A stretch of 64,000 bases of DNA from Thalassolituus sp. UBA674. Lineage in GTDB: Bacteria; Pseudomonadota; Gammaproteobacteria; Pseudomonadales; Oceanobacteraceae. Shown in pieces: positions 45,220 to 61,130 of this stretch. The stretch's first letter is position 1. Every line of letters begins with the position of its first letter. Made by a program: the position numbers and the translations under genes. The stretch covers positions 7,828 through 71,827 of the forward strand of contig DBNK01000033.1 of NCBI GenBank assembly GCA_002298335.1. Reading direction: 5' to 3'. The notes under the pieces were generated by a model. It saw only the letters and a list, made by a program, of their open reading frames with translations. It had not been told where the DNA came from and did not search any database.

Positions 45220-46647
45220 GTGGTTTCAGAAGCGAATAAGAAAGACATCACCTTTGCCGATTGCGCATTCAGCCCTGAGCGTGAGGAATTAGCAGATCAT
45301 CTTACCGAATACCTGAAACTACAAAAAAACGGCTACGTGCTTAATGTCGACGGAGAATGGGGCTCCGGTAAAACTTTCTTTCTGAAGGCATGGCAAGCAA
45401 AACTTAGAAACAACCACCCTACCTGCTACATTGATGCCTGGACTCTCGACTACCTCAACGAGCCATTGGCGACACTTTCTCGAAAAATACTGGATTCTAT
45501 CCATGAGTATCTTGAGAAATACTCCCTAATCAATCCGAACACGGAAAAGAAAATTCTTAATAGCTTGTACCGTTTAATATCCACCAGCGCAAAAATTGGT
45601 GGTTCTGTCGTTGAAAACACTGTCAGCCCAATCGTGGGCAAGGCGATTTCTATTGGAGCTGTCGAACTAGACGACTTTCTACTTAACTCTGGAAAAGATC
45701 AATTTGAGCTATTCAAAAAAACTGAAGATGCCCTTATTGAATTTAAAGGGACACTTCAAAATCACATCAATGATATTTTTGATAAAGAACCAAAAAGCTC
45801 ACCATTCTTCATTTTCATCGATGAGCTAGACAGGTGCCGTCCAAATTACGCTATTGAAATACTAGAAGCTGTCAAACACCTATTCTGCCTAGAGAACACT
45901 ATATTTGTAATCTCCACCAATAGAATAGAAATGGAAAAGTCGATTCAAAAGGTCTATGGAAGTAACTTTTCATCGCAAGGCTATCTATCGAGATTCTTTG
46001 ATAAAAATATTCACTTAAAGACCCAATCACCTCTAAGATTCCTCAAAGAAAATAAAAAGCTGAAACAAATAACCACAAACTCATTAGATCAATGCTACTT
46101 AAGAGATAACCTGGAAGAGTTAGAGCTACTGAGCAATATATTTGAAAATTACGAATTAAAACCAAGAGAAATAGAAAAAAGTCTTGACAACCTGCTTTTA
46201 GCCACCATTAAACTAAAAGATAAAATATATAGCATTTTTACTTTGACTGAATTATTTTGCATTAAGGAAAAAATGTTCATTGATTTTTCCACAATACGAC
46301 CAAAATCTGCAATCACACTTGAAACATACAAAAGTTTAACCTTATACAATAAGAAAATAATTTCGCCTTTTGGCATGAAGAAATACAAAGATGAAAAAGT
46401 AGCACTGGCAGAGATCATGGAATATGAGCATGACTTCCAAGTAGCACTTTCAATGATTAAGAACAACACCAGATATTCTGACTGTGCAAACACCTTTTTC
46501 AACAAACGACAAAGAAGCGGAAAACTAGATACTTTTGCTGAAAGTATACATAGAAAAATAAGCAATCTATCACATCAAAATACTGAGGAGATTGCTGATT
46601 TATTTGAGCTTTTTGACATTGTTGATTTTTCATCGAGATTTCATTAG
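45220..46647 (+). CDS. KAP family P-loop NTPase (soluble variant)
   Basis: 475 aa. Walker A DGEWGSGKTFFLK and Walker B/KAP signature FFIFIDELDRCRP. GTG start after AAGGAAG. Strongly AT-rich relative to the flanks. Confidence 0.8.
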   Translation: MVSEANKKDITFADCAFSPEREELADHLTEYLKLQKNGYVLNVDGEWGSGKTFFLKAWQAKLRNNHPTCYIDAWTLDYLNEPLATLSRKILDSIHEYLEKYSLINPNTEKKILNSLYRLISTSAKIGGSVVENTVSPIVGKAISIGAVELDDFLLNSGKDQFELFKKTEDALIEFKGTLQNHINDIFDKEPKSSPFFIFIDELDRCRPNYAIEILEAVKHLFCLENTIFVISTNRIEMEKSIQKVYGSNFSSQGYLSRFFDKNIHLKTQSPLRFLKENKKLKQITTNSLDQCYLRDNLEELELLSNIFENYELKPREIEKSLDNLLLATIKLKDKIYSIFTLTELFCIKEKMFIDFSTIRPKSAITLETYKSLTLYNKKIISPFGMKKYKDEKVALAEIMEYEHDFQVALSMIKNNTRYSDCANTFFNKRQRSGKLDTFAESIHRKISNLSHQNTEEIADLFELFDIVDFSSRFH

Positions 46648-46756: not shown

Positions 46757-47094
46757 ATCCCCCCTTTTGGGGGATCTTATCCCCCGGCCGGGTGGCCCTC
46801 CCCCTGCTTTCGCGCTTCCTGGGCCGTGTTCCCTTATTTCTTTGGTTCTCTATGAGTACGGCCACACAGGACGTCCATGCTTAGGCAGCCCCGTCCTGTG
46901 TGGCCTGACTCGGCGTCCTGCCTCGCTCCTCATTCGAACCTGCAGAAATCTCGGCGGCCCCAGAGGCACACTTCAACCAGCGACGCCGAGGATGAGATGA
47001 ACATCACTGGGGGCATTGACGTTGGAAGTTGGTATTGGAACTCTCTAAAAATCGCCGTCATTCCGCGGCTTGACCGCGGAATCCAGAGCCTTGA
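46757..47094 (-). repeat. Left arm of a large imperfect palindrome (inverted copy of a ~350-bp repeat unit, truncated at its outer end)
   Basis: Its reverse complement aligns by eye segment by segment with 47095-47450. Matching pieces are the REP-like hairpin, ACATCACTGGGGGCATTGACGTTGGAAGTTGGTATTGG vs ACATTACTGGTGGCCTTGGCGTTGTAGGTGGTATTTGG, CACTTCAACCAGCGACGCCG vs CAGTTCAACCAGCGACACCG, and GCGCGAAAGCAGGGGGAGGGCC vs GCGCGAAGCAGGTGGGTGGGCC. Confidence 0.75.
46859..46904. repeat. 14-bp perfect-stem hairpin inside the left arm
   Basis: GGCCACACAGGACG-(18 nt)-CGTCCTGTGTGGCC. Confidence 0.8.
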
Positions 47095-47134
47095 TCACCG
47101 CTTAATGGATCCCGCGATCAAGTCGCGGGATGAC
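47055..47134. repeat. Pair of inverted REP-like palindromic elements at the centre of the palindrome
   Basis: CGTCATTCCGCGGCTTGACCGCGGAATCCA (47055-47084) and the reverse complement of TGGATCCCGCGATCAAGTCGCGGGATGACG (47105-47134). Each forms a 9-bp stem with a 5-nt loop. Confidence 0.85.
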
Positions 47135-47459
47135 GATTAATTAAGTGGAAACCAAATACCACCTACAACGCCAAGGCCACCAGTAATGTCCTTTCCTTAC
47201 ACGGTGTCGCTGGTTGAACTGCGCCTGTTGCGAGCCGCGTTATTCAAGAACGAGCAGGCTGGAGAAACATGGATGTTTCGACAGGTCAGCTGAGGCATGA
47301 ATGCCGAATCTGACCGTAGCCATGGGAAGTTCGCAGAATGACGTGAATCAGCGAGGAACACAGCGCGAAGCAGGTGGGTGGGCCAGCGCCGGGAGGATGC
47401 CGTCCTCCCAGGAGCAAAAGAGCCGAGTTACTTGGCAGGGCAAGTTGTTAATCCGATCC
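47095..47459 (+). repeat. Repeat unit 1 (full length, direct orientation)
   Basis: It begins AATGGATCCCGCG...GGGATGACG. It contains GCGCGAAGCAGGTGGGTGGGCC, the hairpin GGGAGGAtgccgTCCTCCC and CAAGTTGTTAAT, and ends at the next AAATGGATCCC. Confidence 0.7.
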
Positions 47460-47676
47460 AAATGGATCCCATGTACTTCTTACCGAGGCCGCAGCGAGTT
47501 TGCGGATGACAGTGAAACAGCGAGCAGCTCAGCGCGAAGCAGGAGGGAGCCGGGGCCGCCTAGCCGCGCCGGTCGGGACTAGGCGTCCCCATGCGTCCTC
47601 CCAGGAGCGAAAGAGCAGAATTACCTGGCCGGGCAAGTTGTTAATGCTGTGTCGTCTCCATCTGCAAAATGGATCC
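47460..47676 (+). repeat. Repeat unit 2 (direct, internally deleted, with a ~35-nt insertion), followed by the first 11 nt of a further unit
   Basis: AATGGATCCC...GCGGATGACAGTGAAACAGCGAGC...GCGCGAAGCAGGAGGGAGCC...CCTCCCAGGAGCGAAAGAGC...CAAGTTGTTAATGC...AAATGGATCCC. Confidence 0.7.
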
Positions 47677-47814
47677 CACTCCCCATACCACTTCCCGCGC
47701 CAGTATCCACAAACCGCCTCTGCAACCACCCCAACCTGACACTCGTGCCTTGTGCTGAACTCATGTACAGGATATCGTCCGGGTCAAAATATAATAATAA
47801 AAAGGTACCACCCT

Positions 47815-49944
47815 ATGCGTCTTCTCACGTCTCTGTCCGTGGTTTTATGCCTGACCGGCTGTATGGCCGATGAGCAAATGGTGCTGGATCTCAGTGGTCC
47901 CGACTCCCGCTGGTCATTCTACGATCAGGGCTTCCCGACTGATCTGCGTCAGGATGAGTCCGGTCATCTCGATGTCGCTGACTTCCCGGTTCTGGTTAAG
48001 GCTCCGCTGCTGAAAGATTATGTCGATGTCATCAGCCGTGACACCCTGGGCTTCGCCCCGGAGAGCCCGGTTTACATCCGCTTCAGCGGCGATATTGCCC
48101 CCGGTGACTTTGTTCTGCCGGATGCAGCCGATACCCTGTACAGCACCTCCGCAGTGCAGCTGATCAATGTGGATGCGGACTCTGCCGATCGTGGCAGGCG
48201 CCTGCCAGTCAGCAGCGACTTCCGTTTTGAAGAAGATGAATACCGCCCGGCCGGTCTGTTTCAGGCCTATCCGGTGGGACGCTTCCTGCAGGAAGGGACA
48301 ACCTACGCCCTGATCATTACCCGCGATGTATCGCCGGAGTTTGCGGATGATCTCACGCCCAACCCGGTTCTCAACGCGCTGCTGAAAGGGCAGAACCCAC
48401 GCAACGTTGACCGTCTTATTCCGCGTTCGAAAGCCGAAAAAGCCATGGCCGTGTATGCTCCGCTCGCGGCCCAGCTGGCTCAGGACGGCATTGCCGCCGA
48501 TGACGTGATCGGTGCCGTGGTGTGGACAACAGGCACGCATTCCGAAACTGCACGCCACATTGCTGAGGCCGTTTACGACTGGCCGGTGCCTGCGCTGACG
48601 TCAGACTGGCGTCTGGAGCAGGACATGGACCACTACTGTGTGCTGAAAGCCGACTGGTCAGTACCGACCCTGCAGAAGGGTGTGATGCCGTACGCCTTCC
48701 CACGCTTTGGCGGCAACATTGAGTACGACGCACAGGGTTTCCCGGTGGTGCAGTCGTCACGTGAAACCGAAGTGGTGGTCACCATCCCGAAAGCCCATAT
48801 GCCATCGGCAGGCTGGCCGCTGATGATGTACCACCACGGTACCTACGGCGAAGCCGATCAGGTCTGGGACCGGGGCAAGTACGTGGCTGAAGAAGATCTG
48901 CGCCCATGGGGCTCTGAAGCTGAAATTGCGGCGTTACGCGGTTGGGCAGCGTCCGGCATGAGCGGCCACTTCGGTGCGGATCATCAGGCGCAGCTGCCGG
49001 TGCTGAACTGGTTCTTCGACGGCATTGGTCAGCCGATGAATCTGGTGGAGTACAACTTCCTTAACCCCCAGGCCTTCCGCGATAACCTGCTGCAACAGGT
49101 TGCCGAGCGCATCCTGTTCCGCCGTATGCTGGAACAGCAGCAGATTGATCCATCACTGTGCCCGGGTGCCACCACGAACAAAGAAACCGCCTTCCGCTTC
49201 GACAGCGATATGGAAGTGGTCAGCGGTCAGTCACTCGGCTCCTTTACCGCCACCGGTCAGGTCGCCAGCGATCCGCGTCCGGTCAAAGCCCTGATTCCGT
49301 CCGGTGCCGGTGTCTACGATATCAATCTGGTAATGCAGATTCTGTCGGTCTCTTCCGATGGTACGCCGCTGGGTAATTATCTGGAGCCGGTGTTCTTTGG
49401 TGTGGATAAAAACGACATTGTCGGCGACCCTGCCCACCCTTTCAATGCGCTGGCGGCTCATGCGCTGGCCAGTGCCAACACGGGCTATATGATGGACGCC
49501 CGTAACCGTCGTGAAAGCGACCCTCTGTCAGTACTGACCTTCTTCGGCCACCTGGATGACTGGGTTGTGCTGGAGTCGCAGATCCCGTTTGCTCGGGCAC
49601 TGGGGCTGGATATGGCCGGACCTGAACTGAACGTACCGGATGCCGAAAGCCTGCTGTGGCAACTGCGTTACACAGATACCGCCCAGATCAGCTATCCGGT
49701 CTCAGCCAATAAGGCGGATGGCAGCACCGGGGTATTTGTGCGTTATGCCGAAGATGACATCAAAACCGGCCACAACGTGCTGTTTCAGCACACCGCCGCC
49801 AAGCATCAGTTTGGTTGTGTGCTGCAGGATCTGGCCGCAGGTATGACGCCGACCGTGATTGCTGGTGATTCTCTGGATGGTGACTGTGTCAGCGGTCCGG
49901 TGCTGATTGAAAAGACCGCGCCTGAGCCGTTTCCGGGGGATTGA
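47815..49944 (+). CDS. Lipoprotein with a putative alpha/beta-hydrolase (GxSxG) domain, unknown specificity
   Basis: The start is set at MRLLTSLSVVLCLTGC (lipobox LTGC). The C-terminal half has MMYHHGTYG and a GQSLG nucleophile-elbow-like motif. 709 aa. Confidence 0.6.
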   Translation: MRLLTSLSVVLCLTGCMADEQMVLDLSGPDSRWSFYDQGFPTDLRQDESGHLDVADFPVLVKAPLLKDYVDVISRDTLGFAPESPVYIRFSGDIAPGDFVLPDAADTLYSTSAVQLINVDADSADRGRRLPVSSDFRFEEDEYRPAGLFQAYPVGRFLQEGTTYALIITRDVSPEFADDLTPNPVLNALLKGQNPRNVDRLIPRSKAEKAMAVYAPLAAQLAQDGIAADDVIGAVVWTTGTHSETARHIAEAVYDWPVPALTSDWRLEQDMDHYCVLKADWSVPTLQKGVMPYAFPRFGGNIEYDAQGFPVVQSSRETEVVVTIPKAHMPSAGWPLMMYHHGTYGEADQVWDRGKYVAEEDLRPWGSEAEIAALRGWAASGMSGHFGADHQAQLPVLNWFFDGIGQPMNLVEYNFLNPQAFRDNLLQQVAERILFRRMLEQQQIDPSLCPGATTNKETAFRFDSDMEVVSGQSLGSFTATGQVASDPRPVKALIPSGAGVYDINLVMQILSVSSDGTPLGNYLEPVFFGVDKNDIVGDPAHPFNALAAHALASANTGYMMDARNRRESDPLSVLTFFGHLDDWVVLESQIPFARALGLDMAGPELNVPDAESLLWQLRYTDTAQISYPVSANKADGSTGVFVRYAEDDIKTGHNVLFQHTAAKHQFGCVLQDLAAGMTPTVIAGDSLDGDCVSGPVLIEKTAPEPFPGD

Positions 49945-50001
49945 GTGCAGGAATCATCCACCGCCATCCCCGCTTTGGGGATGAAGCCTGACCTTCTGTA
50001 A

Positions 50002-50025
50002 CAGGGCCTGATCAGTCAGGCCCTG
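50002..50025. terminator. 10-bp perfect hairpin between convergent genes (no U-tract)
   Basis: CAGGGCCTGA-tcag-TCAGGCCCTG. A second hairpin CATCCCC-gcttt-GGGGATG lies at 49965-49983. Confidence 0.5.
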
Positions 50026-50049
50026 CTGCCACAAGCAAGAACAGACGGG

Positions 50050-51402
50050 TCAGATCAGGTAACTCCACCCGCCAGCGATGTAGTCCTTAATCTTCCGGGC
50101 AATGAATGGCCCGTGTGACCTCAGAATAAACGCCAGTAACATTAACCGATAAGCGGCCTGGTGGTTTTCATCCTCCAGGGCCAGAGCCAGATCCCTCAGA
50201 TCGTCTGTTACCGGCCCCTCAAACGCCGCCCGCATCCGGGGTGGAATATCTTCAATGGCCAGAGTCTTACCGGCCTGTGCCGGAATATTGCTCAGCTTCT
50301 GATGCAACCGGTCAGCCAGTGTTGCGGCTTTGGGAGTAGCAAAGACCGGATCATTCTTCAGATCCTTCCTGAGTATCAGCAACTGCTCAAGCACCGAGGG
50401 GAATACATGCTGCTCCAGCTGTTTAACCTTCCACGAGAAAATGGATACCGTGATGGCAAACGCATAGGGTACGAATGAAATACTGAGTTGACTGACCCCG
50501 AACAGAACGTCGGAAAGATAGCGGTAGTAGTCTACGGAAAAACGGTTAATAACCGTCTTTATCTCGTCCGTTTCCAGCTCCTGCAATTCATCACTGTAAT
50601 ACGCCATTTCGTCCAGTACGACTCTGGCTTTATCGTACAGATCCGGATCCCGGGTTTTCAGATAAGAGGCCATTTCCTGCAACTTTCCGGCATGCTGGTT
50701 GAGCGCAGTCAACATCTCGTTCAGTGTTTTCCGGTGAGCGATTTTTTCTCTCTCAGCCTCGTCCGGTGATTGCTCGTATTCCTCAACAGGAATTGGCTTA
50801 ACACCTTTTTTTTCCGGCGTAAAATCAATGGCGAGATTAACCCGGTTTTTGTCGGTGTAATTATACGTCTGGTGATCATAGCTGTAGTCGAATATGACGT
50901 AATCACCTGCCTCAGACACTGGCTGAGTCTGACCGTTACAGGAAATGGTACAGCCATCGCCGACTGATTCCAGAAGAACATGACAGATCAGGTTCTTCTT
51001 CACATGCTTGTGGCTGTCGATCCGGGCGCCGGAGTGCAGATTCAGAAAGCTGACAAAATTGACGTTGGGTATCTGATCAATGAAGGAATACAGGAAAGGG
51101 AAGGCCCTGCGCATTTTCTCGTTGTATTCTGGTTTATTGACCTTGAAAACAGGCAGGGTGGCAAAACGCCCTCCCCGCGAGTCATAGCCTATCTGCTCAC
51201 GGTGAAAGCCACCTTCAAAGACCCAGTCCTGGAAAACCTCATGAATAAAAATACCCACTTCTTCTTCTGACTTATCAAAATGAGCACTATCAAGGTGCGA
51301 CTGGCGTTCTTTCTCTTCATTATCCCGAAGCTCCGCATAGAGCTTCTCTGCGTTATCGACAATCGGCTGAAGAAAGGTAAAGTCCTTTATCGAAAAAAAC
51401 AT
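50050..51402 (-). CDS. Aspartyl/asparaginyl beta-hydroxylase-like (cupin, Fe/2OG) domain fused to a ~240-aa helical C-terminal domain of unknown function
   Basis: Residues ~110-205: NLHSGARIDSHKHVKKNLICHVLLESVGDGCTISCNGQTQPVSEAGDYVIFDYSYDHQTYNYTDKNRVNLAIDF. This follows the AspH/LpxO family pattern (PG..I.pH.h...r.H..L....c.i.v.g....eG....FD....H...N.....RV.L..D). The C-terminal half has no recognised motif. Confidence 0.6.
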   Translation of the reverse strand: MFFSIKDFTFLQPIVDNAEKLYAELRDNEEKERQSHLDSAHFDKSEEEVGIFIHEVFQDWVFEGGFHREQIGYDSRGGRFATLPVFKVNKPEYNEKMRRAFPFLYSFIDQIPNVNFVSFLNLHSGARIDSHKHVKKNLICHVLLESVGDGCTISCNGQTQPVSEAGDYVIFDYSYDHQTYNYTDKNRVNLAIDFTPEKKGVKPIPVEEYEQSPDEAEREKIAHRKTLNEMLTALNQHAGKLQEMASYLKTRDPDLYDKARVVLDEMAYYSDELQELETDEIKTVINRFSVDYYRYLSDVLFGVSQLSISFVPYAFAITVSIFSWKVKQLEQHVFPSVLEQLLILRKDLKNDPVFATPKAATLADRLHQKLSNIPAQAGKTLAIEDIPPRMRAAFEGPVTDDLRDLALALEDENHQAAYRLMLLAFILRSHGPFIARKIKDYIAGGWSYLI

Positions 51403-52280
51403 GAGAACGATTCCAGTGTGTGTATTTGTTTATTGCGCTCATCATCCATAGGAGCGTTTGACAGAACCGGGAATCTGAAAAAGAGGATACTGCGAATATC
51501 GCCGTTATGATAAACCCCGGGGAAAACAGGCACACAACCAAACTGGGCCATCCAGTCAACGATCGCATCGACCATAGGCCAGTTCAGGCTTTTCAGATAC
51601 TGATATCCTTTCTGGATATCTGAAATAAACCACATGATGACTTTTTCATACTTTTCAGTCTGGGTGTACTCAAGAAATGGCGCATCGAAAATACCCGGAT
51701 CTTTAAAGCGCTCCGATATGATCCGGCGTTCACGATCTCTCATAAAATAGAAGTAATGCTTTGAAAGTCCTTCTTCTTTTAATCTGAACTCCTGAGAGAA
51801 CCCGTAGTTCAGTGAGCTGTTCTCGGGCTTGAGTTCACCGTCAGGGCTGATCTTTTCGCTGTGCATATGCTGCAGGGGCACACGGTAATGGAAGTACTCC
51901 ATCGGCGGCTTTTCAGGCTGCATTTTAAGCGCAAATGTGCAACCGGTGAGTTCCAGATTACGGCGTCTGGAGGGCGTCCATTCATGGTAGTGCGAGTTGA
52001 ATCCACGGCGCTGGGTCAGAAAGCGGGCGATTTCCGGGGAGCGTAATCTTCGCCAGTAGCCAGCGTACGCTTTGCAGTTAATGATTTTATCCCGGGTGAA
52101 ATTAATACCAAGATAGGTTTCAAAGGGATAATCACCCGGATCGGTCAACCTGACGTTATCGTAGAAATTTCTCATCGGCTCTGAACTGAGCAGTTCAGGG
52201 ATGAGATTAATCTGGTTCTGAATGGCCGGACTGGTCAATGTACGCTCCTGATTCTGGGCATTTATCTGAGCCGGAAACAC
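51387..52280 (-). CDS. Hypothetical protein, no recognised family; start uncertain (GTG at 52280 or ATG at 52175)
   Basis: 297-aa ORF. Its stop overlaps the downstream hydroxylase-like gene by 16 nt, so the two are likely translationally coupled. Lower GC than the flanks. Confidence 0.5.
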   Translation of the reverse strand: MFPAQINAQNQERTLTSPAIQNQINLIPELLSSEPMRNFYDNVRLTDPGDYPFETYLGINFTRDKIINCKAYAGYWRRLRSPEIARFLTQRRGFNSHYHEWTPSRRRNLELTGCTFALKMQPEKPPMEYFHYRVPLQHMHSEKISPDGELKPENSSLNYGFSQEFRLKEEGLSKHYFYFMRDRERRIISERFKDPGIFDAPFLEYTQTEKYEKVIMWFISDIQKGYQYLKSLNWPMVDAIVDWMAQFGCVPVFPGVYHNGDIRSILFFRFPVLSNAPMDDERNKQIHTLESFSCFFR

Positions 52281-52632
52281 GTTCGGGAAAAGAAGAAGCT
52301 ATATCCTTACCGCTCTTCGCTCAAATCTTTATATTAAGTGACAATTTGTTCAGGAAAAGTACCTGCAGCTTTGATTTCCGATATTATCGACGCTGAAATT
52401 CATTATCAACCTGCCTTGCGGCGGCACTACAGGTATGTCCGCTTCAGCGAAAGTCTGCTGATCATACCCAAAAACGGGAGCGACAAACCGGACGCTCATT
52501 TTCCGGCTGAACAATATGGAGAATATCCGCAGACACACATACTGCCTTGTCGGGTCTGAAATGAATGATTAAGCTGTCAGCTATACTTGAAAGCCAGTTC
52601 AGTAAATACCGGTCTCAGCAGAGGTTCTGAAA

Positions 52633-53181
52633 ATGCGCGACAAAGTCATTCTGGTCGATACGGAAGATAACCCCTGCGGTATCGAAGAGAAGCTGGCAGC
52701 CCACTACAATCCCGGAAAGAGACACCGGGCCTTTTCGGTATTCATTATTAATTCTGCAGGTCAGTTACTGCTGCAACAGCGTGCCGCAGCCAAGTACCAT
52801 GCAGGGGGGCTTTGGGCCAATTCCTGCTGCAGCCATCCGCAACCTGATGAGGTACTTGCCGAGTCGGCATCGCAGCGTCTGTCAGAAGAAATGGGCATTG
52901 ATGTCAGCGTAGAAGCCTTTGGAACCTGCGAGTACCAGCTACCCGTCAGTGACACTATGACCGAATGGGAGCTGGATCACCTGTTAATCGGCCACTACGA
53001 CGGCGAGGTGTTTCCCAACCCTGATGAGGTCGACAACATCCGCTGGGCAGATGTGTCGCTTATTGCAGAGGAACTCAGACTGACACCAGAGCGCTATGCA
53101 CCCTGGTTTCACGTCATCTTCCCGCTGTTTGCGGACCACATGAAAGACGCATCCGCTACGGCACGGATGCATCAGGGATAG
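52633..53181 (+). CDS. idi: Isopentenyl-diphosphate delta-isomerase, type 1 (Nudix)
   Basis: 182 aa: HRAFSVFIINSAGQLLLQQRAAAKYHAGGLWANSCCSHP...SEEMGI...TEWELDH, the Idi-1 catalytic Cys/Glu context. Confidence 0.88.
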   Translation: MRDKVILVDTEDNPCGIEEKLAAHYNPGKRHRAFSVFIINSAGQLLLQQRAAAKYHAGGLWANSCCSHPQPDEVLAESASQRLSEEMGIDVSVEAFGTCEYQLPVSDTMTEWELDHLLIGHYDGEVFPNPDEVDNIRWADVSLIAEELRLTPERYAPWFHVIFPLFADHMKDASATARMHQG

Positions 53182-53202
53182 TAAGCAGACGGGGAAGTGC
53201 CA

Positions 53203-55008
53203 TCAGGCACTCTTCCCCGCCATATACCGTCTCCACCCCCCAAGCCCGGTAATCTCCTCCGCACCATCAACCCCATACGGCTCGCAGATAAACCCACTCA
53301 CCCAGCGGCCATCCACCAGCTCAACTTTGCCGATACCCAGCGGGGCCGGGATATTCGCCACAAAACTGCCGAATTCGCTCGATGGCAGACGCCAGACTTC
53401 GACATCAATCGCAGCGCCATTGGCTTCGTCACGGATCAGACCGGGGCGGAACGGTGGGCCACCAGCCAGCGCGTACATGCGGTAAAACGGGCTGGTCGTG
53501 GTACTTTCCGCCAGTCGTGCGCCACGTTCGGTCAGCTGCCAGTTGAGTGGCAGGCCTTCGAGATGAGCACCGCACACGGCAACTTCGATATGGCTTTGAT
53601 CAGCAACTGTGGGCTGCGCCAGATTCAGGCTGACGGCGGCTTCGGCGCCGGATGGCAGTGGCAGCAGGCTCTGGATGCGCTGAGCGATGGACAGCAGTGC
53701 GCGGTCGCTGAACGCCGGACCAACCAAGGTGACGCCAAACGGCAGGCCGTCGTCGGTGAATGACGTGGGTACCGCCACTGAAGTCATATCCAGCAGGTTC
53801 ATAAAGTTGGTGTAGTAACCCAGTTCGCTGTTGCGCTTGATCGGTTCTTCCAGCAGTTCGGCGATGGTGAACAGGCGACCGGCGGTCGGGGTCAGTACGC
53901 AGTCGATGTCTTCCAGCTGGGCGGTACAGATGCGCTTGAGTGCTTCGAGGCGGTATTCAGCGAGGAACAGGTCAACGGCTTTGTGCTCGCCGCCCGGTTC
54001 GATGATGGTGCGGATGACTGGCAAAAGCGCATCCGGGTTGGTTTTGATCAGGTCTTCGATGGCGAGATAACGCTCACTCACCCAGGGGCCTTCGTACAGC
54101 AGACGTGCAGCTTCGTCGAACGGTGCGTAGTCGATTTCTTTTAATGAAATGCCTGAATTTTTCAGGGCACCCAGCGTTTTGCGATAAGCGTTTTCATAGC
54201 CTTCATCACCAAAGAATTTCAGCTGAGCTTCGGGAATCACTCCGATAGTCAGTGCCCCGGCGCGTTCACCGAAATGACGCGGGCTGTTGCTGTAGGTGTT
54301 TTTGCGGCTGTAGCCGTCGGCGGCATCGTACCCTTCAGCACAGGCGAGCACGGCATTCGCATCGGCGCTGTTGAGGGCAAAGATGCTGATGCAGTCGAGG
54401 CTACGGCACGCCGGTACCAGACCGGTTGCCGACAACAGGCCTTTGGTTGGCTTGAGACCCACCAGATTGTTAAAACAGGCTGGCACCCGCCCGGAGCCGG
54501 CGGTATCCGTCCCCAGACTGAAGCTGGCCAGACCCAGCGCAACAGACACAGCGGAACCTGAGCTGGAGCCGCCGCTGATGTAGTCCGGGTTAAACGCATT
54601 GTGGCACTCACCGAATGGCGAGCGCGTGCCGTTCAGACCCGTAGCGAACTGGTCGAGGTTGGTTTTACCAACCGGAATGGCTCCGGCATCGATCAGTTTC
54701 TGCACCACGGTTGCATTCACCTGTGGCGTGTAGGCGAAGGCCTCGCAGGCAGCAGTGGTCGGCACGCCGGCGAGGTCGATGTTGTCTTTCACGGCAAACG
54801 GAATACCCCACAGCGGAAAGCTGTCGATGGGCTTGTCGTTCAGACCGTCCAGATACGGCTGCACCTCGGTTTCGCTGAGGGCGTGAATCCAGATGTTGTG
54901 GCCAGCGTACTGCTGCGAGCGCTCGCGGATGTCCGCCAGCACTTCAGCGGGTGTGCTCTGGCTGCTCAGATAGGCCTCACGCAAGGCCGTCAGGGTCATG
55001 CTTTTCAT
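53203..55008 (-). CDS. Allophanate hydrolase
   Basis: 601 aa. Amidase signature (GGSSSGSAVSVALG, ...GTDTAGSGRVPA) plus an AtzF-type C-terminal domain. Confidence 0.9.
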   Translation of the reverse strand: MKSMTLTALREAYLSSQSTPAEVLADIRERSQQYAGHNIWIHALSETEVQPYLDGLNDKPIDSFPLWGIPFAVKDNIDLAGVPTTAACEAFAYTPQVNATVVQKLIDAGAIPVGKTNLDQFATGLNGTRSPFGECHNAFNPDYISGGSSSGSAVSVALGLASFSLGTDTAGSGRVPACFNNLVGLKPTKGLLSATGLVPACRSLDCISIFALNSADANAVLACAEGYDAADGYSRKNTYSNSPRHFGERAGALTIGVIPEAQLKFFGDEGYENAYRKTLGALKNSGISLKEIDYAPFDEAARLLYEGPWVSERYLAIEDLIKTNPDALLPVIRTIIEPGGEHKAVDLFLAEYRLEALKRICTAQLEDIDCVLTPTAGRLFTIAELLEEPIKRNSELGYYTNFMNLLDMTSVAVPTSFTDDGLPFGVTLVGPAFSDRALLSIAQRIQSLLPLPSGAEAAVSLNLAQPTVADQSHIEVAVCGAHLEGLPLNWQLTERGARLAESTTTSPFYRMYALAGGPPFRPGLIRDEANGAAIDVEVWRLPSSEFGSFVANIPAPLGIGKVELVDGRWVSGFICEPYGVDGAEEITGLGGWRRYMAGKSA

Positions 55009-55076
55009 GTTAATGCCTTCAATTCAATTCGGTTCGTATTCAGAGTTCAGGAGTCAGGGCTTCTTACCAATCTGTC

Positions 55077-58000
55077 CTAGGATTCAGACAGGACCACCAG
55101 CGCCTTACCCGCGCTGACTCTGTTGCCGGGTTCCAGCAGCATGCGGCTGACAACGCCATCGCACGGTGCCTGCACCGGGATTTCCATCTTCATGGACTCC
55201 AGCACCAGCAGGGTCTGCCCGGCCTTAACAACCGCGCCCTCTTCCACTTCGACCTGCCAGACGCTGCCGGACACCGGGCTGTCGACGATGGTGGCGTCTT
55301 CCGGCCAGACTTCTTCTGTGGATTCTTCTTCGGCCTCAAACGTATCGCTGTAAAACTGGCCATCGCGGTGCCAGCGCTGCAGCTCTTCGTCGAAGGCGTT
55401 CTGACGGTGCTCGCGGAAGGCGCTGATGCTGTCAGCGTTGTCGTTAATCAGGGCCTCGTAATCGGCCAGACGGAATTCACCCTCTTCGATTTTCAGCGGG
55501 TACTGGCCACGCGGAAATTCGGTGCGGATGGTCTGCAGTTCATCGTGGGAGACCTCGTAAAAACGGATCTGATCGAAGAAGCGCAGCAGCCAGGGCTGGG
55601 TGAATTCGGCGGTCTGGCGATAGCGGTTCCACATCTGCAGAGTACGCCCGACAAACTGGTAGCCACCCGGGCCTTCCATGCCGTAGACACAGAGGTAGGA
55701 GCCGCCGATGCCCACAGAGTTCTCGGCGGTCCAGGTACGGGCCGGGTTGTACTTGGTGGTGACCAGACGATGACGCGGGTCGACCGGGGTCGCCACCGGC
55801 GCACCCAGATACACGTCGCCGAGGCCCATCACCAGATAAGAGGCATCGAAGACGATCTTCTTCACATCGGCGATGCTGTCGAGGCCGTTAATACGGCGGA
55901 TAAACTCGAGGTTGCTCGGACACCAGGGCGCATTTTTACGCACCGACTGCTGGTATTTATCAATCGCCAGCTGACAGGCTTCGTCATCCCACGACAGTGG
56001 AATGTGCACAGTACGCGACGGCACACTGAGGCTGTCGAGCTCGCGGCTGAGGTTCTGCTCGGCGGTTTTCAGATGCGCCAGCAGAGTCGCGTGATCGAGC
56101 TGCTGGCTGTCGAAATGCACCTGCAGTGAGCGGATGCCCGGCGTCAGTTCACGCAGACCCGGCAGCGGGTTCGCCTGCAGCCACTGCATCAGCGCATGAG
56201 CGCGGAAACGCAGGCGGATGTTGAGCACTTTAGGGCCGTATTCCACCAGCAGGAAGTGATCACCGGCGGCGCGGTAGACCACGTCTTCGCCCACTTCGCT
56301 TTCGCTCAGGGAGGACAGCACCGGCGTGCCACGATCGCTCAGCGGTGTTACGTCGGGTGCTGTTAACGAGAGGGATGCTAGCTGCTGATTCTGAGCGGCT
56401 TCGAGTGCCACAGCGTCTTCAATCGACACCGGCTCAAAGCGGATTTTATCGCCCGCACGCAGCTGCCCCAGCTTCCACAGATCAGCGGTAATGACCGTTG
56501 CCGGGCAGACGAAGCCACCTAACGAAGGGCCGTCCGGGCCCAGAATAACCGGCATATCACCGGTAAAATCCACAGTACCAAATGCGTAGGCGTTGTCGTG
56601 AATATTCGACGGGTGCATACCTGCTTCGCCGCCGTCTTTGCGCGCCCATTCCGGTTTCGGACCGATCAGACGGATACCGGTACGGCTGGAGTTGTAGTGG
56701 ATCTCCCACTCGTTCTCAAAAAAGGTATCAATGTCGCTGTCGGTGAAGAAATCCGGTGCGCCGTGCGGGCCATAAACAACACGCAGCGTAGTGGTGTTGC
56801 TGATCGCCGGCAGCAGAGGAGAGACATCGATATCTGGTAAATCGGCCTCAGCAGAAGGCTTCAGATGTAAAACATCACCGGTGCGGATCGCCCGCCCGTT
56901 ATGGCCACCGAACTGACCCAGCGTGAAGGTCGAGCGAGAGCCCAGATATTCCGGGCAGTCGAAGCCACCCTGAACTGCGAGGTAGGTGCGCGCACCGGCG
57001 CTGGCGACCCGACCCAGAGACAGAGTCTGACCAGCGTCTACGCTGATCACCTTGTTCAGGTCGACAACTTCGCCATCCAGTTTAGCGTCGATGTCAGCAC
57101 CACACAGCACCAGCGAGGTGACTGCGCTGAACTTCAGCGTCGGACCAGAGAGCGTGATTTCCAGACCGGCAGCACGTTCGTCGTTACCCAACAGGCGGTT
57201 AGCCAGTCGGAAGGAATAGCTGTCGAACGGGCCGGACGGCGGCACGCCCACATCCCAGTAACCCTGACGTGACGGAAAGTCCTGAATCGTGGTCAGGGTA
57301 CCGCCCTGCAGTACATCGATGCGCGCCGGGGCATATTTAAACTGGTTGAGATAGCGGGTAGTCACTTCGCCTCTGGCCAGCGTCTCGTCACGGGTCAGAT
57401 GACGCAGGTAGTCGAGGTTGGTCTCGCTGCCGTACAGCTTCGATTCATCCAGTACCTGCTGCAGTTTCGCCAGCGCGGCGTCACGGTCAGCGGCGTGAAC
57501 AATGACTTTGGCAAGCATAGGGTCGAACCACGGCGGTACGTCGATACCGGCTTCGATCCAGCGATCGATGCGGATGCCCTCACCCTCGGGGAACTCCACC
57601 TGAGTCAAAAGACCGGCGCAGGGGCGGAAGTCCTGATACGGGTCTTCGGCGTACAGGCGCACCTGAATCGAATGGCCGGATGGCTTGAGGTCGGCACGCA
57701 GCTGATCCAGATCCGGCAGTGCGCCACCCGCGAGACTGACCATCCATTCCACCAGATCGACGCCGAACACTTCTTCGGTGACACCGTGCTCAACCTGTAA
57801 GCGGGTATTCACTTCAAGGAAGTAAAACTTCTGGGTATCGGCATCAAGTACAAACTCGACGGTACCGGCGTTGCGGTAACTGACGCTCGACAGCAGAGCT
57901 TCGGCGGTGCTGTGCAGCGCGGTGCGAGTGCTGTCGTCGAGGTTGGGTGCCGGGCACTCTTCCACCACTTTCTGGTTACGACGCTGACTGGAGCAGTCAC

Positions 58001-58676
58001 GCTCACCGAGAGCCAGTGCCTTGCCCATACCATCGCCGAATACCTGCACTTCGATGTGGCGCGCACGGGTGATGAATTTCTCGAGGAAGACACTGTCATC
58101 GGCAAAGTTGTTGGCGCTGAGGCGTTTCACACTGACCCAGGCACTGCGCAGTTCGGTCTCGCTGTGACACAGCTGCATGCCGATACCACCACCACCCGCA
58201 CTGCTCTTCAGCATCACCGGGTAACCAATGCGGTCAGCTTCGCTGACGGCTTCTTCAAGACTTTCCAGAACACCGGTACCCGGCAGCAGTGGCACGTCGG
58301 CCTGCGTCGCCAGATCACGGGCACGGTGTTTAAGACCGAAGGCTTCCATCTGCTCAGGCGTTGGCCCGATAAAGGCGATGCCTTCTTTATCGCAGCGGCG
58401 CACAAAATTCGCGTTCTCACTGAGAAAGCCATACCCCGGATGAATCGCCTGCGCACCGCACTCGTGGGCGATGGCAAACAGCTTGTCGGTGTTCAGATAA
58501 GTGGCCGTGGCATCGCCGTCACCGAGACTGTAAGCCTCATCGGCATGACGCACGTGCAGAGACTCCGCGTCTCCTTCGGCATAAACCGCAACGGCAGTCA
58601 CGCCCATGCGTTTGAGAGTGCGGATGATGCGGGTGGCAATCGCCCCGCGGTTAGCGATCAGAACTTTGTTGATCAT
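55077..58676 (-). CDS. Urea carboxylase family enzyme, probably guanidine carboxylase given the riboswitch context
   Basis: 1199 aa. N-terminal biotin carboxylase (MINKVLIANRGAIA...), central KipI/KipA-like domains, C-terminal biotinyl motif LESMKMEIPV. Confidence 0.9.
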   Translation of the reverse strand: MINKVLIANRGAIATRIIRTLKRMGVTAVAVYAEGDAESLHVRHADEAYSLGDGDATATYLNTDKLFAIAHECGAQAIHPGYGFLSENANFVRRCDKEGIAFIGPTPEQMEAFGLKHRARDLATQADVPLLPGTGVLESLEEAVSEADRIGYPVMLKSSAGGGGIGMQLCHSETELRSAWVSVKRLSANNFADDSVFLEKFITRARHIEVQVFGDGMGKALALGERDCSSQRRNQKVVEECPAPNLDDSTRTALHSTAEALLSSVSYRNAGTVEFVLDADTQKFYFLEVNTRLQVEHGVTEEVFGVDLVEWMVSLAGGALPDLDQLRADLKPSGHSIQVRLYAEDPYQDFRPCAGLLTQVEFPEGEGIRIDRWIEAGIDVPPWFDPMLAKVIVHAADRDAALAKLQQVLDESKLYGSETNLDYLRHLTRDETLARGEVTTRYLNQFKYAPARIDVLQGGTLTTIQDFPSRQGYWDVGVPPSGPFDSYSFRLANRLLGNDERAAGLEITLSGPTLKFSAVTSLVLCGADIDAKLDGEVVDLNKVISVDAGQTLSLGRVASAGARTYLAVQGGFDCPEYLGSRSTFTLGQFGGHNGRAIRTGDVLHLKPSAEADLPDIDVSPLLPAISNTTTLRVVYGPHGAPDFFTDSDIDTFFENEWEIHYNSSRTGIRLIGPKPEWARKDGGEAGMHPSNIHDNAYAFGTVDFTGDMPVILGPDGPSLGGFVCPATVITADLWKLGQLRAGDKIRFEPVSIEDAVALEAAQNQQLASLSLTAPDVTPLSDRGTPVLSSLSESEVGEDVVYRAAGDHFLLVEYGPKVLNIRLRFRAHALMQWLQANPLPGLRELTPGIRSLQVHFDSQQLDHATLLAHLKTAEQNLSRELDSLSVPSRTVHIPLSWDDEACQLAIDKYQQSVRKNAPWCPSNLEFIRRINGLDSIADVKKIVFDASYLVMGLGDVYLGAPVATPVDPRHRLVTTKYNPARTWTAENSVGIGGSYLCVYGMEGPGGYQFVGRTLQMWNRYRQTAEFTQPWLLRFFDQIRFYEVSHDELQTIRTEFPRGQYPLKIEEGEFRLADYEALINDNADSISAFREHRQNAFDEELQRWHRDGQFYSDTFEAEEESTEEVWPEDATIVDSPVSGSVWQVEVEEGAVVKAGQTLLVLESMKMEIPVQAPCDGVVSRMLLEPGNRVSAGKALVVLSES

Positions 58677-58689
58677 GATGTTTCCTATT

Positions 58690-58773
58690 GCGGGTCGTCC
58701 CGCTCAGAAATTTGGTTTCAGGTCTTGAGAAATTCACTTCACTTTCTCGCCTGATCACAGAGGTCGTCCTCTG
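58690..58773 (-). promoter_or_regulatory. Candidate guanidine-II (mini-ykkC) riboswitch: two ACGA-capped hairpins
   Basis: The minus-strand RNA reads CAGAGG-ACGA-CCUCUG (58773-58758), then a 54-nt linker, then GCGGG-ACGA-CCCGC (58703-58690), then AAUAGGAAACAUC-AUG of the carboxylase gene. Confidence 0.6.
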
Positions 58774-58925
58774 CTTAATTGTTAAATCACTGAAGTTTTC
58801 CCAGGACTGGTCCGGAGGTTTTGTGGACGCGACGCCCGGAGCGCAGGAACCGGAAGGTATAGGTCATACCTGAGGATTCCGAGCACCGCGCAACAAAGTC
58901 CACGACAGCTTCCGGTCAGTCCCAC

Positions 58926-59567
58926 TTAAACGTTCCAGACTAGTAACTCTACGGGTGTGGGGTTATAGCCATTGCACGGGTTGTTAAGTTGGGGGCAATT
59001 CGAAATCAACACTACAACATCCATCAACGCCTTCAGCTCCACGTACTTACCCGGTGCGGAAATACCGTCTTCAAAGGTCAGGCCACCCGCTTCGGTTACG
59101 GGTACGTTCATAAAGAAGTTGATGTTGTGGCTGATGTCGCGCTTGCTGATGCCGTATTCCGGGTGCTCGGCAATGGCAAGCATCCAGCTGTCGCGGCAGG
59201 CGTGCATGCAGCGCTTTTCGAGGTCGTAGCGCACGGTATTACTTTCCGTCGCGCAGGCACCGCCGAGGGTATCGTGACGACCACAGGTATCGGCGACGAT
59301 CTCCAGCATGGGGGTGTTTTCATTGGAGCGCAGCACCGACCCTGTGGTCAGGTAGACGTTGCCCTGCTCGCGGATGGTGTCCATGGCGCTGTAGCGCTCG
59401 GACGGATCTTCGGCGCTGTAAAACAGGGTGTCAGCGGCCTGATTACCTTCCAGATCGAGAATACGCATGGTCTGGCCCGCGGCGACGATACCAATGAAAT
59501 AATCACCGGCATCGATGATGGTGCGGCTCATGGCACCGTCGGCTTTGAGTGTACTTTCGGTCAGCAT
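58926..59567 (-). CDS. Urea carboxylase-associated protein (DUF1989), putative carboxyguanidine deiminase subunit
   Basis: 213 aa of DUF1989-type sequence, paired with a paralogous subunit upstream (7-nt overlap). Confidence 0.8.
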
Positions 59568-60304
59568 GATGATTTCCCCATGTTGGTGCCCATGTAATAC
59601 AACGCGTTGTTCTGGAAACCGCGGCGGTTTTCCGGGCGGTAATTCAGGCAGTAATCGTCATCGCTGACCGGGTCGGCCTCGCCGATTTCGATTCGCACGG
59701 GTTTACGCGGGTACTCAGACGCGGTGCTGAGCGGGTGTGGACAAGTGTGCATCAGCACCAGAGTGTCCATGTCAAAACGCAGGGTGACGCTGCTGCCGGG
59801 GGTGCTGTGGCGGTCGTCGAGGCTCATGTTTCCGGCGGCGTCCGTTGCTACCTTACTGAACCAATTGATGTTGGCGGCGATATCCGCACGGCCAAGGCCA
59901 TACTTCGCCAGCTCCACCAGAAAGGCGTCGTAGCCGTTCTGATGCCAGTCGTTGCGGTCGTGCTGGTAATCGCGCTTACCCCACTTTTCCGCAACATGCG
60001 CGGCGTGGCTGTTGCCACACACGGTCTCGTGCCAGCCGAGACTGTCTTCGACGATGGAGGCAAAAATACGCCCCATGTCGGAGTACAGGCAGTTGCCACG
60101 GGTCAGGCGGAAGGTGTGCTGACACTTGAGGGTGTCCGGCGCGTTGTAACGCTCGAGCAGATCTTCCGGGTTGTAAAACAGCATACCCAGATTGCCGCTG
60201 CCTTCGATGTCGGTAATGCGCATCTGGGTGCCACGGCGTAAGCGCAGCGACCAGTGGCCGCCGGCGGGTATATCAGTGGTGTAAAAGACGTCGTTCATTG
60301 TCAT
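59561..60304 (-). CDS. Urea carboxylase-associated protein (DUF1989), putative carboxyguanidine deiminase subunit
   Basis: 247 aa of DUF1989-type sequence ([27 protein letters not shown]...). Confidence 0.8.
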
Positions 60305-60346
60305 AGTCCTGTTTCGCGTATTCGATGAAGGGCTGAGGCTGTTGCC

Positions 60347-61129: not shown

Positions 61130-61130
61130 A

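Follow-up and report, generated by a model that had tools for sequence, protein, structure and literature searches.

What do two AT-rich genes on the minus strand, transcribed away from a gene for a type-1 isopentenyl-diphosphate delta-isomerase (idi), do together in a marine bacterium, and on what do their products act? The initial annotation of the 64-kb window (the whole stretch of DNA that was analysed) proposed that they form a small tailoring cassette that prenylates and β-hydroxylates a peptide, a lipid or a small molecule. We examined gene structure, predicted folds, homologous loci and related genomes to weigh this proposal.

Organization of the operon and the divergent idi gene

The upstream gene of the pair, here called prenyltransferase-like (PT-like), has its longest ORF at 51387-52280 (minus strand, 297 aa, from GTG 52280), and the hydroxylase gene follows at 50050-51402 (minus strand, 450 aa). 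The PT-like stop and the hydroxylase ATG overlap by 16 nt (51387..51402, minus strand), a feature that had been pointed out at the start and that the coordinates confirm. Because of this overlap, the hydroxylase is presumably coupled translationally to the PT-like gene. The same 16-nt overlap is found at positions 1351-1366 of the locus with the closest homologous pair (L087). Both NCBI and ENA annotate the PT-like protein at 283 aa, which corresponds to a TTG start at 52238 (51387..52238, minus strand). An AGGAG (52249-52245) lies upstream of this codon with a 6-nt spacer, and the alignment with homologues begins only at about residue 15 of the 297-aa reading. Judging from these sequence features, TTG 52238 is probably the true start of the gene.

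The two genes are indeed AT-richer than their neighbours: the GC content was 0.469 for the PT-like gene and 0.488 for the hydroxylase gene, versus 0.58-0.60 for the flanking host genes. The GC content of idi was 0.546, compared with 0.47-0.49 for the operon, and it may therefore have arrived separately. Between the convergent genes for the 450-aa protein and a 730-aa protein lies a hairpin with a 10-bp stem and a 4-nt loop (50002..50025; CAGGGCCTGA-TCAG-TCAGGCCCTG), which is a possible bidirectional terminator; the terminator scan was silent on it because a T-run is absent.

The divergent gene, idi (52633..53181, plus strand, 182 aa), passed the NCBIfam equivalog NF002995 (162.1 bits; cut-off, 127) and TIGR02150 (122.8 bits; cut-off, 105.8), and its product matched Pfam NUDIX (E 4e-16), in agreement with its first identification as a type-1 enzyme. 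In a set of 185,579 species-representative genomes, its nearest relatives show no more than about 50% identity and come from scattered phyla. The intergenic spacer (52239..52632) measures 394 bp to the TTG start and 352 bp to the longest ORF, the latter being the distance of about 350 bp given originally. It contains one sigma-70-like site (52409-52381, minus strand), which is no commoner than in shuffled sequences, and it matched no Rfam family. Accessory type-1 idi genes inside isoprenoid and meroterpenoid clusters are a general pattern. None of the three ORFs (idi, the PT-like protein and the hydroxylase) is disrupted, and each retains its catalytic residues.

A strain-specific accessory block

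The three genes and the adjacent gene for the 730-aa, lipoprotein-like product make up a strain-specific, accessory block of ~5.5 kb (47678..53206) in the genome of an uncultured marine member of the Oceanospirillaceae. It is missing from two close relatives, the Oceanospirillaceae MAGs L098 and L099, which lack idi, the PT-like gene, the hydroxylase gene and the neighbouring lipoprotein gene all together. In blastn comparisons, synteny between these genomes and the window (~87-91% identity) ends at 53207 and at 45160, and between these points they share only a repeat stretch (46819-47677) with the window. Conservation of idi at this position independently of the pair, which would have separated it from the two genes, was not what we saw: the two relatives, with flanks ~91% identical, lack all three. 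Thus, idi was gained or lost together with the operon. At the block junction, related genomes carry a KAP NTPase, a PemK toxin and repeats.

The low GC content, the strain-specific insertion at a junction that collects KAP NTPase, PemK and repeat sequences, and the lack of a substrate gene nearby would also be expected if the island were a leftover of horizontal transfer, inert or in decay and no longer functional. However, the three ORFs are intact with catalytic residues retained, and the 16-nt overlap is conserved. Moreover, copies of the genes that are identical or nearly so, with very few substitutions, occur on 67-92 contigs drawn from numerous samples of ocean and beach sand, and we therefore judge that the genes are not decaying; this explanation is very improbable.

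The PT-like protein is predicted to adopt an ABBA fold

The PT-like protein, labelled "hypothetical protein" by NCBI, had matched nothing recognizable when it was first read, and our searches gave the same result: no match was obtained in Pfam, NCBIfam or the PDB at the sequence level. Its family has 92 representatives among 1.84 billion proteins. No match to Pfam or NCBIfam was found for any of 40 family members, and the family profile retrieved no prenyltransferase from the PDB. Sequence comparisons therefore place the PT-like proteins in a separate, previously unannotated and very divergent family within the known ABBA superfamily.

Membership of that superfamily is supported by the predicted structure. 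The AF2 model, built with 40 homologues, has high scores (pLDDT 92.9, pTM 0.91) and shows a ten-stranded barrel made of five alpha-alpha-beta-beta repeats (strands 53-61/66-75, 114-120/127-134, 159-166/172-179, 202-207/212-217 and 250-257/263-268), with helix pairs between them. The ABBA fold is defined by ten antiparallel strands in a central barrel, formed by five alpha-alpha-beta-beta repeats with the helices outside (PMC7973389), and the model has these ten strands and five repeats. A Foldseek search of the PDB gave 67 matches at E ≤ 1e-3, and all of the best 50 were ABBA prenyltransferases (best E 7.6e-7, probability 1.00, TM-scores 0.43-0.60), headed by the RiPP peptide prenyltransferases PirF, PatF, PagF, LimF, KgpF and DciF. 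Identity to the solved prenyltransferases in the structural alignments was 6-12%, at a TM-score of only about 0.5. Six short strand-like segments and the absence of a DDxxD motif had prompted the initial annotation to suggest, speculatively, an ABBA fold; all six fall on predicted β-strands of the model, and the 297-aa translation contains no DDxxD. A fold other than that of a prenyltransferase, which would have spoken against the suggestion, did not emerge from the model. These results support an ABBA prenyltransferase fold, as modelled, for the product of the 297-aa ORF.

We then considered residue conservation across 84 family sequences that share only ~20-30% identity. N60, K70, K119, E204 and K213 are invariant; Y72, E164, K174, Y176, Y257 and Y266 are conserved at ~89-96%, with either K or R at position 174 in every sequence. 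All of these residues lie on strands. The window protein has Leu at 266, where 96% of the family have Tyr. The conserved residues show the i/i+2 spacing of strands (K70-x-Y72 and K174-x-Y176-x-Y178), and they would face the barrel lumen. In NphB, DMATS enzymes and PagF, Lys/Arg and Tyr residues in the barrel lumen bind the prenyl diphosphate and shield the carbocation. The five invariant residues and the Lys-x-Tyr motifs therefore make a catalytic or diphosphate-binding site likelier than a passive scaffold, and the PT-like protein presumably transfers a prenyl group.

The same barrel could instead be a non-catalytic substrate-binding partner, or could bind another diphosphate such as an undecaprenyl-diphosphate-linked intermediate, in which case the adjacency to idi would be coincidental. 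Two family members are fused to different catalytic domains, one to AspH (P0025) and one to Methyltransf_21 (P0075), and the family therefore resembles a shared binding module. It also has no sequence-level kinship with any known prenyltransferase family, and some members lie in Wzm/Wzt-type exporter contexts; exporters of this type use Und-PP-linked substrates. The differing GC content of idi and the lack of Tyr266 in the window protein point the same way. This explanation nevertheless has to accommodate the five invariant residues and Lys-x-Tyr strand motifs across such divergent sequences, the gain or loss of idi with the operon, and the presence of UbiA and a polyprenyl synthase beside another member, and we consider it unlikely.

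The hydroxylase combines an AspH-type domain with a helical domain

The 450-aa protein had been described as an AspH-type domain fused to a helical region, and both parts of this description hold. Residues 1-205 (50788..51402, minus strand) form an AspH/LpxO-type Fe(II)/2-oxoglutarate (2OG) hydroxylase domain, in which Pfam PF05118 (Asp_Arg_Hydrox) matched residues 93-195 (E 9e-14; 52 bits; cut-off, 22.6). The motifs quoted in that description hold H131, H177 and R187, which align by phmmer with metal- and 2OG-binding positions of human AspH (His679, His725 and Arg735) and are invariant in all four prenyltransferase-associated hydroxylases compared. Its counterpart in L087 is a free-standing hydroxylase of 199 aa, with which the domain shares 48% identity. 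Its best NCBIfam matches are the lipid hydroxylases OlsC (E 8e-7) and LpxO (E 3e-6). As equivalogs, both were rejected (28.6 bits versus a cut-off of 450, and 26.4 bits versus 500, respectively).

The remaining ~245 aa (50050..50787, minus strand; residues ~206-450) constitute a lineage-specific, all-helical C-terminal domain, for which we found no homologue beyond the host lineage and no match in Pfam, NCBIfam or the PDB. The AF2 model of this domain is unreliable (pLDDT 44.7), though helical throughout 215-442. A hydrophobic segment at ~299-325 (Kyte-Doolittle maximum, 1.68 at 299-317) is borderline as a membrane helix. Among near-identical copies of the hydroxylase, only positions 233, 246 and 346 vary, and all three are in this domain.

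The C-terminal domain ends with AGG-WSYLI. We considered, as a long shot, that the barrel and the AspH-type enzyme form an obligate two-step unit making an undescribed modification, with the hydroxylase carrying its own substrate. In the first part of this idea, a β-hydroxylated Asn/Asp or other residue, for example, would be the nucleophile that the PT-like enzyme then O-prenylates. In the second, the helical domain would be a fused leader followed, after the double glycine, by the five-residue core WSYLI, which would be hydroxylated or prenylated and then released, as in borosin-type enzyme-substrate fusions. A substrate borne by the hydroxylase would explain the lack of a separate precursor gene.

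Conserved pairing and the likely substrate

Pairing of a PT-like protein with an AspH-type hydroxylase was seen in four lineages, in one of them as a gene fusion. The two genes are adjacent in L087, the PT-like gene adjoins two AspH copies in L097, and the two domains are fused in P0025. Identities of the two partners drop in parallel (44/48%, 28/25% and ~24/30%). We regard the barrel and the hydroxylase as an evolutionarily conserved two-enzyme unit.

The available 5.8 kb of L087 also contains an AsnB-like gene, the tail of an ABC exporter and two Nif11 precursors, which have GG sites and whose cores lack Cys and Trp. Because the pair in L087 would work on Nif11-leader ribosomal peptides, a peptide is, by analogy, the most likely substrate class here. 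Of the substrates named in the initial annotation, the peptide thus gained a precedent in L087, but the window itself yielded no precursor ORF. A small precursor ORF, for which a search of the spacer and its flanks had been proposed, did not turn up: spacer ORFs gave no Pfam match and no Nif11-like or core-like peptide, and across the 64-kb window the Nif11 HMM had no match at E ≤ 10, no core-like motif was seen, and no protease or exporter gene was found.

Taken together, these findings lead us to favour, at a probability of about 55%, the reading that the block is a small isoprenoid-dependent tailoring module in which the PT-like protein and the hydroxylase act on a substrate that is likely a peptide. 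The type-1 isomerase would boost the supply of the allylic donor DMAPP. The 283-aa protein, as a soluble PT-barrel enzyme, would move the prenyl group onto a nucleophilic side chain or aromatic ring of the substrate, and the coupled AspH-type Fe(II)/2OG oxygenase would hydroxylate the same substrate. DMAPP as the donor and this order of the two reactions are what we infer. The gene for the substrate may lie beyond the window, or the substrate may be brought in by the helical C-terminal domain that is unique to this hydroxylase.

The linkage to isoprenoids, on which the original proposal leaned, was found elsewhere in part. Genes for UbiA and a polyprenyl synthase are found no more than 10 kb from one other family member, which also has PhyH and a P450 as neighbours. 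The pair occurs in L087, L097 and L084 (contigs of only 2-6 kb) with no idi in view, and none was seen at any other family locus, most of which are on short contigs. Other family members occur in a type III PKS/P450 cluster, a setting in which NphB-type enzymes are found, and several are accompanied by Wzm/Wzt-like ABC-2 exporters, enzymes that modify sugars, and methyltransferases; glycosyltransferases, a nucleotidyl-transferase and an epimerase are further neighbours. The exporter contexts therefore point towards glycan or lipid, rather than peptide, substrates, and the lipid and small-molecule parts of the original proposal keep a place in the family as lipid, glycan or polyketide substrates.

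Applied to the window, these contexts suggest that the same enzymes might act on a membrane lipid, a lipid-linked glycan or a small aromatic metabolite. On this reading, an acyl or prenyl chain would be hydroxylated by the AspH-type domain, as by LpxO and OlsC, and the hydrophobic C-terminal domain would anchor the enzyme to the membrane. OlsC and LpxO as best NCBIfam matches, the segment at 299-325, the missing precursor gene and the lipoprotein of the block, with its weak phospholipase similarity, all fit such a substrate, as do the exporter and PKS/P450 contexts. However, OlsC and LpxO reach only 26-29 bits, far under the cut-offs of 450-500, the segment at 299-325 is a borderline case of a membrane helix, the closest pair (44-48% identity) adjoins two Nif11 precursors, and the best structural matches are peptide prenyltransferases of equal size. 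A non-peptide substrate is a less probable alternative to the peptide that we favour.

Comparison with known systems

The novelty of the locus lies in a new sequence family and a new enzyme partnership inside a known superfamily, and the PT-like/AspH unit appears to be a new tailoring module that lipid-tags and hydroxylates natural products. Cyanobactin F-family enzymes (PagF, PirF, LimF, KgpF, DciF and PatF) are, like the PT-like protein, single-domain, soluble and ~280-300 aa in size, share its ten-stranded barrel and are its best structural matches; among these solved ABBA proteins, PatF is not known to be active. A RiPP link is shared as well, since the closest homologue of the window protein is in the L087 RiPP locus. 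The two families nevertheless have no detectable sequence similarity (6-12% identity in structural alignments, no profile match), and F-family membership was rejected for want of a Pfam, NCBIfam or PDB profile match. Cyanobactin clusters carry PatA/PatG-type proteases and a PatE-type precursor, neither of which is in the block, and L087 differs from them in its Nif11 leaders with GG sites and in having no cyanobactin proteases in its 5.8 kb. Further, members of the PT-like family have an AspH-type hydroxylase as obligate or frequent partner, a pairing for which our literature search found no report among F-family enzymes.

MppC of Moorena producens, a leader-dependent lanthipeptide prenyltransferase of the ABBA type, modifies a Nif11-leader RiPP precursor; its partner is a LanM lanthionine synthetase, and its target is a Trp in a core that contains Cys, unlike the L087 cores (PMC12715784). 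It is larger than the PT-like protein, with functional residues at 336 and 340 (PMC12715784), and in L087 the place of LanM is taken by two other partner enzymes, an AspH-type hydroxylase and the AsnB-like protein. NphB/CloQ and DMATS enzymes (CymD, AnaPT and AtaPT) share the fold of the PT-like protein, with TM-scores of up to 0.60 (CymD), and small-molecule ABBA prenyltransferases likewise lack a DDxxD motif. Some PT-like members lie in type III PKS/P450 clusters, as do NphB-type enzymes (PMC7973389). However, family members match no NphB/CloQ or DMATS Pfam model, and are ~280 aa long, compared with 350-400 aa for DMATS enzymes.

With AspH, LpxO and OlsC, the hydroxylase shares the PF05118 cupin domain, the two-His metal site and the 2OG-binding Arg. 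It differs from them in lacking a TPR domain, in its unique ~245-aa helical C-terminal domain and in its coupling to a PT-barrel gene. Finally, as in isoprenoid clusters with an accessory idi, a type-1 idi here adjoins a predicted prenyl-consuming enzyme. Compared with isoprenoid and meroterpenoid clusters the set is minimal, comprising three genes and no prenyl-chain synthase, and would therefore fit a C5 (DMAPP) donor.

Gene structure and composition of the operon

The two minus-strand ORFs placed by the initial annotation at 50050-51402 (450-aa hydroxylase) and 51387-52280 (PT-like, i.e. ABBA prenyltransferase-like) were recovered by ORF calling at these coordinates, with the same 16-nt overlap. 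The annotated length of 297 aa holds for the longest ORF of the PT-like gene; the likely gene product is shorter, because both ENA and NCBI call a 283-aa protein from a TTG start at 52238. AGGAG lies six bases 5' of this TTG, homologue alignments to the 297-aa reading begin only at about residue 15, and the first ~16 residues of its AlphaFold2 model are of low confidence. Residue numbers of the PT-like protein refer to the 297-aa reading. The GC contents of the PT-like and hydroxylase genes (0.469 and 0.488, respectively) are lower than those of the flanking host genes gatB, allophanate hydrolase and urea carboxylase (0.56-0.60), as had been noted. The divergent idi gene (52633-53181, +; GC 0.546) passed two NCBIfam equivalog models for type-1 IPP isomerase, in agreement with its first assignment.

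Exact-sequence look-up recovered each operon gene on 67-92 contigs; the samples of origin include Tara Oceans material and a beach-sand metagenome, and MAG entries list both products as "hypothetical protein". The spacer upstream of the PT-like gene holds a Cys- and Tyr-rich 14-codon ORF, MCVCGYSPYCSAGK (52540-52496, -), with AAGG four bases 5'; the copies of the locus at hand are all near-identical.

A PT-like protein family with a predicted ABBA fold

Pfam, NCBIfam and PDB sequence searches gave no match for the 297/283-aa protein. Word-seeded homologue searches with the 297-aa and 450-aa proteins returned the query alone, and three matches with a profile. When 1.84 billion cluster representatives were scanned exhaustively with HMMER, 92 relatives of the PT-like protein emerged at E<=1e-3 (32 at E<=1e-10), which rules out the orphan status suggested by the word-seeded searches. 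Nearly all family members are 265-295 aa long, and their loci span 25% to 72% GC, indicating that the family is widespread but rare. None of 40 members matched a Pfam or NCBIfam prenyltransferase model, and the family profile found nothing meaningful in the PDB.

AlphaFold2 with a 40-sequence alignment produced a model (pLDDT 92.9, pTM 0.91) in which ten strands form five hairpins with helix pairs between them. Foldseek returned 67 PDB matches at E<=1e-3, and the best 50 were all ABBA prenyltransferases: first the RiPP peptide enzymes PirF (E 7.6e-7), PatF, PagF, LimF, KgpF and DciF, and then DMATS-type enzymes of fungi and bacteria, the highest TM among these being 0.60 (CymD). Judged from this model, the ABBA fold, initially put forward as speculation, is near-certain. 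TM-scores of ~0.5 against solved ABBA enzymes, at 6-12% identity, place the modelled similarity at the superfamily level, outside every known family.

Among 84 full-length representatives, N60, K70, K119, E204 and K213 are invariant, and Y72, G113, E164, K174, Y176, G255, Y257 and Y266 are 89-96% conserved, with K or R at position 174 in every sequence. The conserved residues sit on strands with i/i+2 spacing. In NphB, DMATS and PagF, lumen residues bind diphosphate and shield the carbocation; by analogy, we infer that the conserved PT-like residues face the lumen and would serve in these same two roles. Residue 266 (51483-51485, -), in the last barrel strand, is Tyr in 81 of the 84 representatives and Leu in the window protein. 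Since one pocket residue switches donor length in PagF and PirF (PMC7973389), Leu266 might alter the donor preference of the window protein.

PT-like proteins are linked to AspH-type hydroxylases

A metagenome scan with a 5-sequence alignment yielded five loci. The closest homologue of the window protein, P0003 (44% identity), is encoded on a 5.8-kb contig (locus L087), where it is followed by a 199-aa free-standing AspH-type hydroxylase that has the same 16-nt overlap as in the window and 48% identity to the N-terminal half of the 450-aa protein. Next come genes for an AsnB-like amidotransferase and two precursors of the Nif11 family (a RiPP precursor leader family), and, upstream, the contig includes the tail of an ABC exporter gene. 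The precursors bear LxxxxL and GG motifs, and their conserved cores, Y[RK]LNQVNQVL[ST]GL, contain neither Cys nor Trp. The homologue P0006 (28% identical) has AspH-type genes on either side, and P0025 is a single 485-aa protein in which the barrel is fused to an AspH-type cupin. Thus, in a small co-occurrence sample of 10 locus types, 3 of which are too short for judgement, the PT-like/AspH pair occurs as neighbouring genes in three lineages and as a fused protein in a fourth. The two partners also diverge in parallel across loci.

Other members occur in further biosynthetic settings. One is flanked by two P450 genes within a type III PKS cluster, and another is clustered with TylF methyltransferases, PhyH, a P450, UbiA, a polyprenyl synthase and a Wzm/Wzt-like exporter. 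At locus L095 (4576-6910), two PT-barrel paralogues stand in tandem, the second fused to a Methyltransf_21 domain, in a cluster that also encodes an ABC exporter ATPase, a nucleotidyl-transferase, an epimerase, a P450, PhyH and an LMF1-like membrane protein. The general picture is of a tailoring enzyme of natural-product clusters, usually beside an oxygenase. Fusion of the barrel to two different catalytic domains keeps alive the alternative that it is a binding module instead of a transferase.

As for the substrate, on the evidence of the Nif11 precursors at L087 the leading candidate class is a ribosomal peptide, tentative and somewhat short of even odds. The rival, a glycan or lipid, is kept in play by the PT-like members that neighbor Wzm/Wzt-type exporters and sugar enzymes.

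The hydroxylase and its C-terminal domain

The AspH-like domain originally assigned to the 450-aa protein was detected by Pfam (Asp_Arg_Hydrox, residues 93-195, E 9e-14). H131, H177 and R187 align to the iron- and 2-oxoglutarate-binding residues of human AspH and are invariant in four hydroxylases accompanying the PT-like family. Because all catalytic residues are present, the coupled hydroxylase should be active.

Word-seeded searches found no homologue of its ~245-aa helical C-terminal domain outside this lineage, and there was no family or PDB match; AlphaFold2 of the 450-aa protein with a two-sequence alignment gave a pLDDT of 44.7. The protein ends (50050-50070, -) in …KIKDYIAGG-WSYLI, in which a double-glycine motif precedes five residues, Trp and Tyr among them, an arrangement that recalls a leader/core junction. 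In near-identical variants the …AGG-WSYLI end is invariant, and the only substitutions, at 233, 246 and 346, fall in the helical domain. A borderline-hydrophobic segment spans 299-325. The C-terminal domain could be a membrane or recruitment domain or, more speculatively, a fused leader and core. It also contains one DDxxD motif (DDLRD); we rejected a terpene-synthase or prenyl-synthase reading, as this lone motif is too near the C-terminus and is expected by chance in an estimated ~8% of domains of such size and composition.

The operon and idi lie in a strain-specific block

In two close relatives of the host (L098 and L099), the urea-carboxylase/allophanate-hydrolase and gatCAB flanks are ~87-91% identical to the window at the DNA level. 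Synteny breaks off at window positions 45160 and 53207, and in the interval between them only a repeat-rich stretch, 46819-47677, is shared with the relatives. The block 47678-53206, comprising a 730-aa lipoprotein-like gene, the hydroxylase gene, the PT-like gene and idi, is wholly missing from both, indicating that it is strain-specific. As idi is missing along with the operon, it is not independently conserved at this position, a possibility that would have counted against the initial annotation. Among 185,579 species-representative genomes there was no close relative of idi; the best, from scattered phyla, are ~50% identical. No direct repeats, tRNA, integrase or Rfam matches were found at the block edges, and no PT-like family member was found on plasmids.

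The 730-aa ORF (47752-49944, +; called as 709 aa by ENA) carries a lipoprotein-type signal (…LCLTGC…) and falls in no Pfam family, and its sole match, to VolA/Pla-1 phospholipases, is weak (E 0.0017). Its GC is host-like, yet it is within the block missing from the relatives. The repeat cluster (46819-47677) is REP-like, with 70-nt and 52-nt direct repeats and 75-nt and 20-nt inverted repeats, and is present at the same gatB/allophanate-hydrolase junction in related genomes; metagenome pipelines call ORFs of 79-93 aa in it, which lack Pfam matches and are unlikely to be real genes. Directly after gatB, a gene for a 475-aa KAP-family P-loop NTPase (45220-46647, +) has a GC of 0.36, down to 0.30 in places. 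Its absence from the two relatives suggests that it entered this same junction as foreign DNA in a separate event. L098 carries a PemK-family toxin gene (12678-13115) at the place of the island, which makes the junction an accessory-DNA hot spot; L099 has a single 227-aa ORF there. On the right, the island is bounded by an ordinary urea-utilization cluster (53203-63092, -; allophanate hydrolase, urea carboxylase, two DUF1989 proteins and an ABC transporter), a stable flank that is conserved in the relatives.

Proposed function of the module

That the PT-like protein is a soluble prenyltransferase is suggested by its fold, its conserved and probably lumen-facing polar residues, the co-inheritance of idi and the presence of isoprenoid genes next to another family member; we regard prenyl transfer as reasonably probable. 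The donor in the window would probably be DMAPP, because an isomerase is present and a chain-elongating synthase is absent. The coupled AspH-type hydroxylase would act on the same substrate as the prenyltransferase. We assign a probability of about 0.55 to the overall reading of a tailoring module in which a prenyltransferase and a coupled hydroxylase modify a substrate, most likely a peptide. The small precursor ORF that the initial annotation proposed looking for in the spacer and flanks did not emerge: a Nif11 HMM, a fuzzy core motif and tblastn of the L087 cores recognized no precursor in the window, and ORFs in the idi/operon spacer had no Pfam match.

Relation to known systems

Prenylation is one of few lipidation routes for ribosomal peptides and small aromatic metabolites, and known soluble prenyltransferases are prized biocatalysts. 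A family that was blank in databases (no Pfam or NCBIfam model; "hypothetical protein" in GenBank) is now defined, with a predicted prenyltransferase barrel. Its pairing or fusion with AspH-type enzymes offers a concrete, testable genome-mining handle, and Nif11 precursors lacking core Cys and Trp offer a second; either might bring new peptide modifications to light. The window, from a marine bacterium that is abundant and uncultured, is an unusually compact test case: three genes with their own DMAPP supply.

The ABBA superfamily, RiPP prenylation, AspH-type hydroxylases in RiPP pathways and accessory idi genes are already known. What appears to be new is the PT-like sequence family, unannotated in the databases examined, its recurrent coupling or fusion with an AspH-type hydroxylase, and its occurrence beside Nif11 precursors that have no Cys or Trp in their cores. 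A full-text search, with most subscription journals outside its coverage, found no description of the PT-like/AspH pairing. An aspartate-to-aminomalonate RiPP cascade (PMC12186529) was rejected as a match, since the partner enzyme there is an HD-domain protein. MppC is an ABBA prenyltransferase acting on Nif11-leader peptides (PMC12715784). However, MppC-type enzymes are larger and are partnered with lanthionine synthetases (PMC12715784), whereas the window PT-like protein is paired with an AspH-type hydroxylase.
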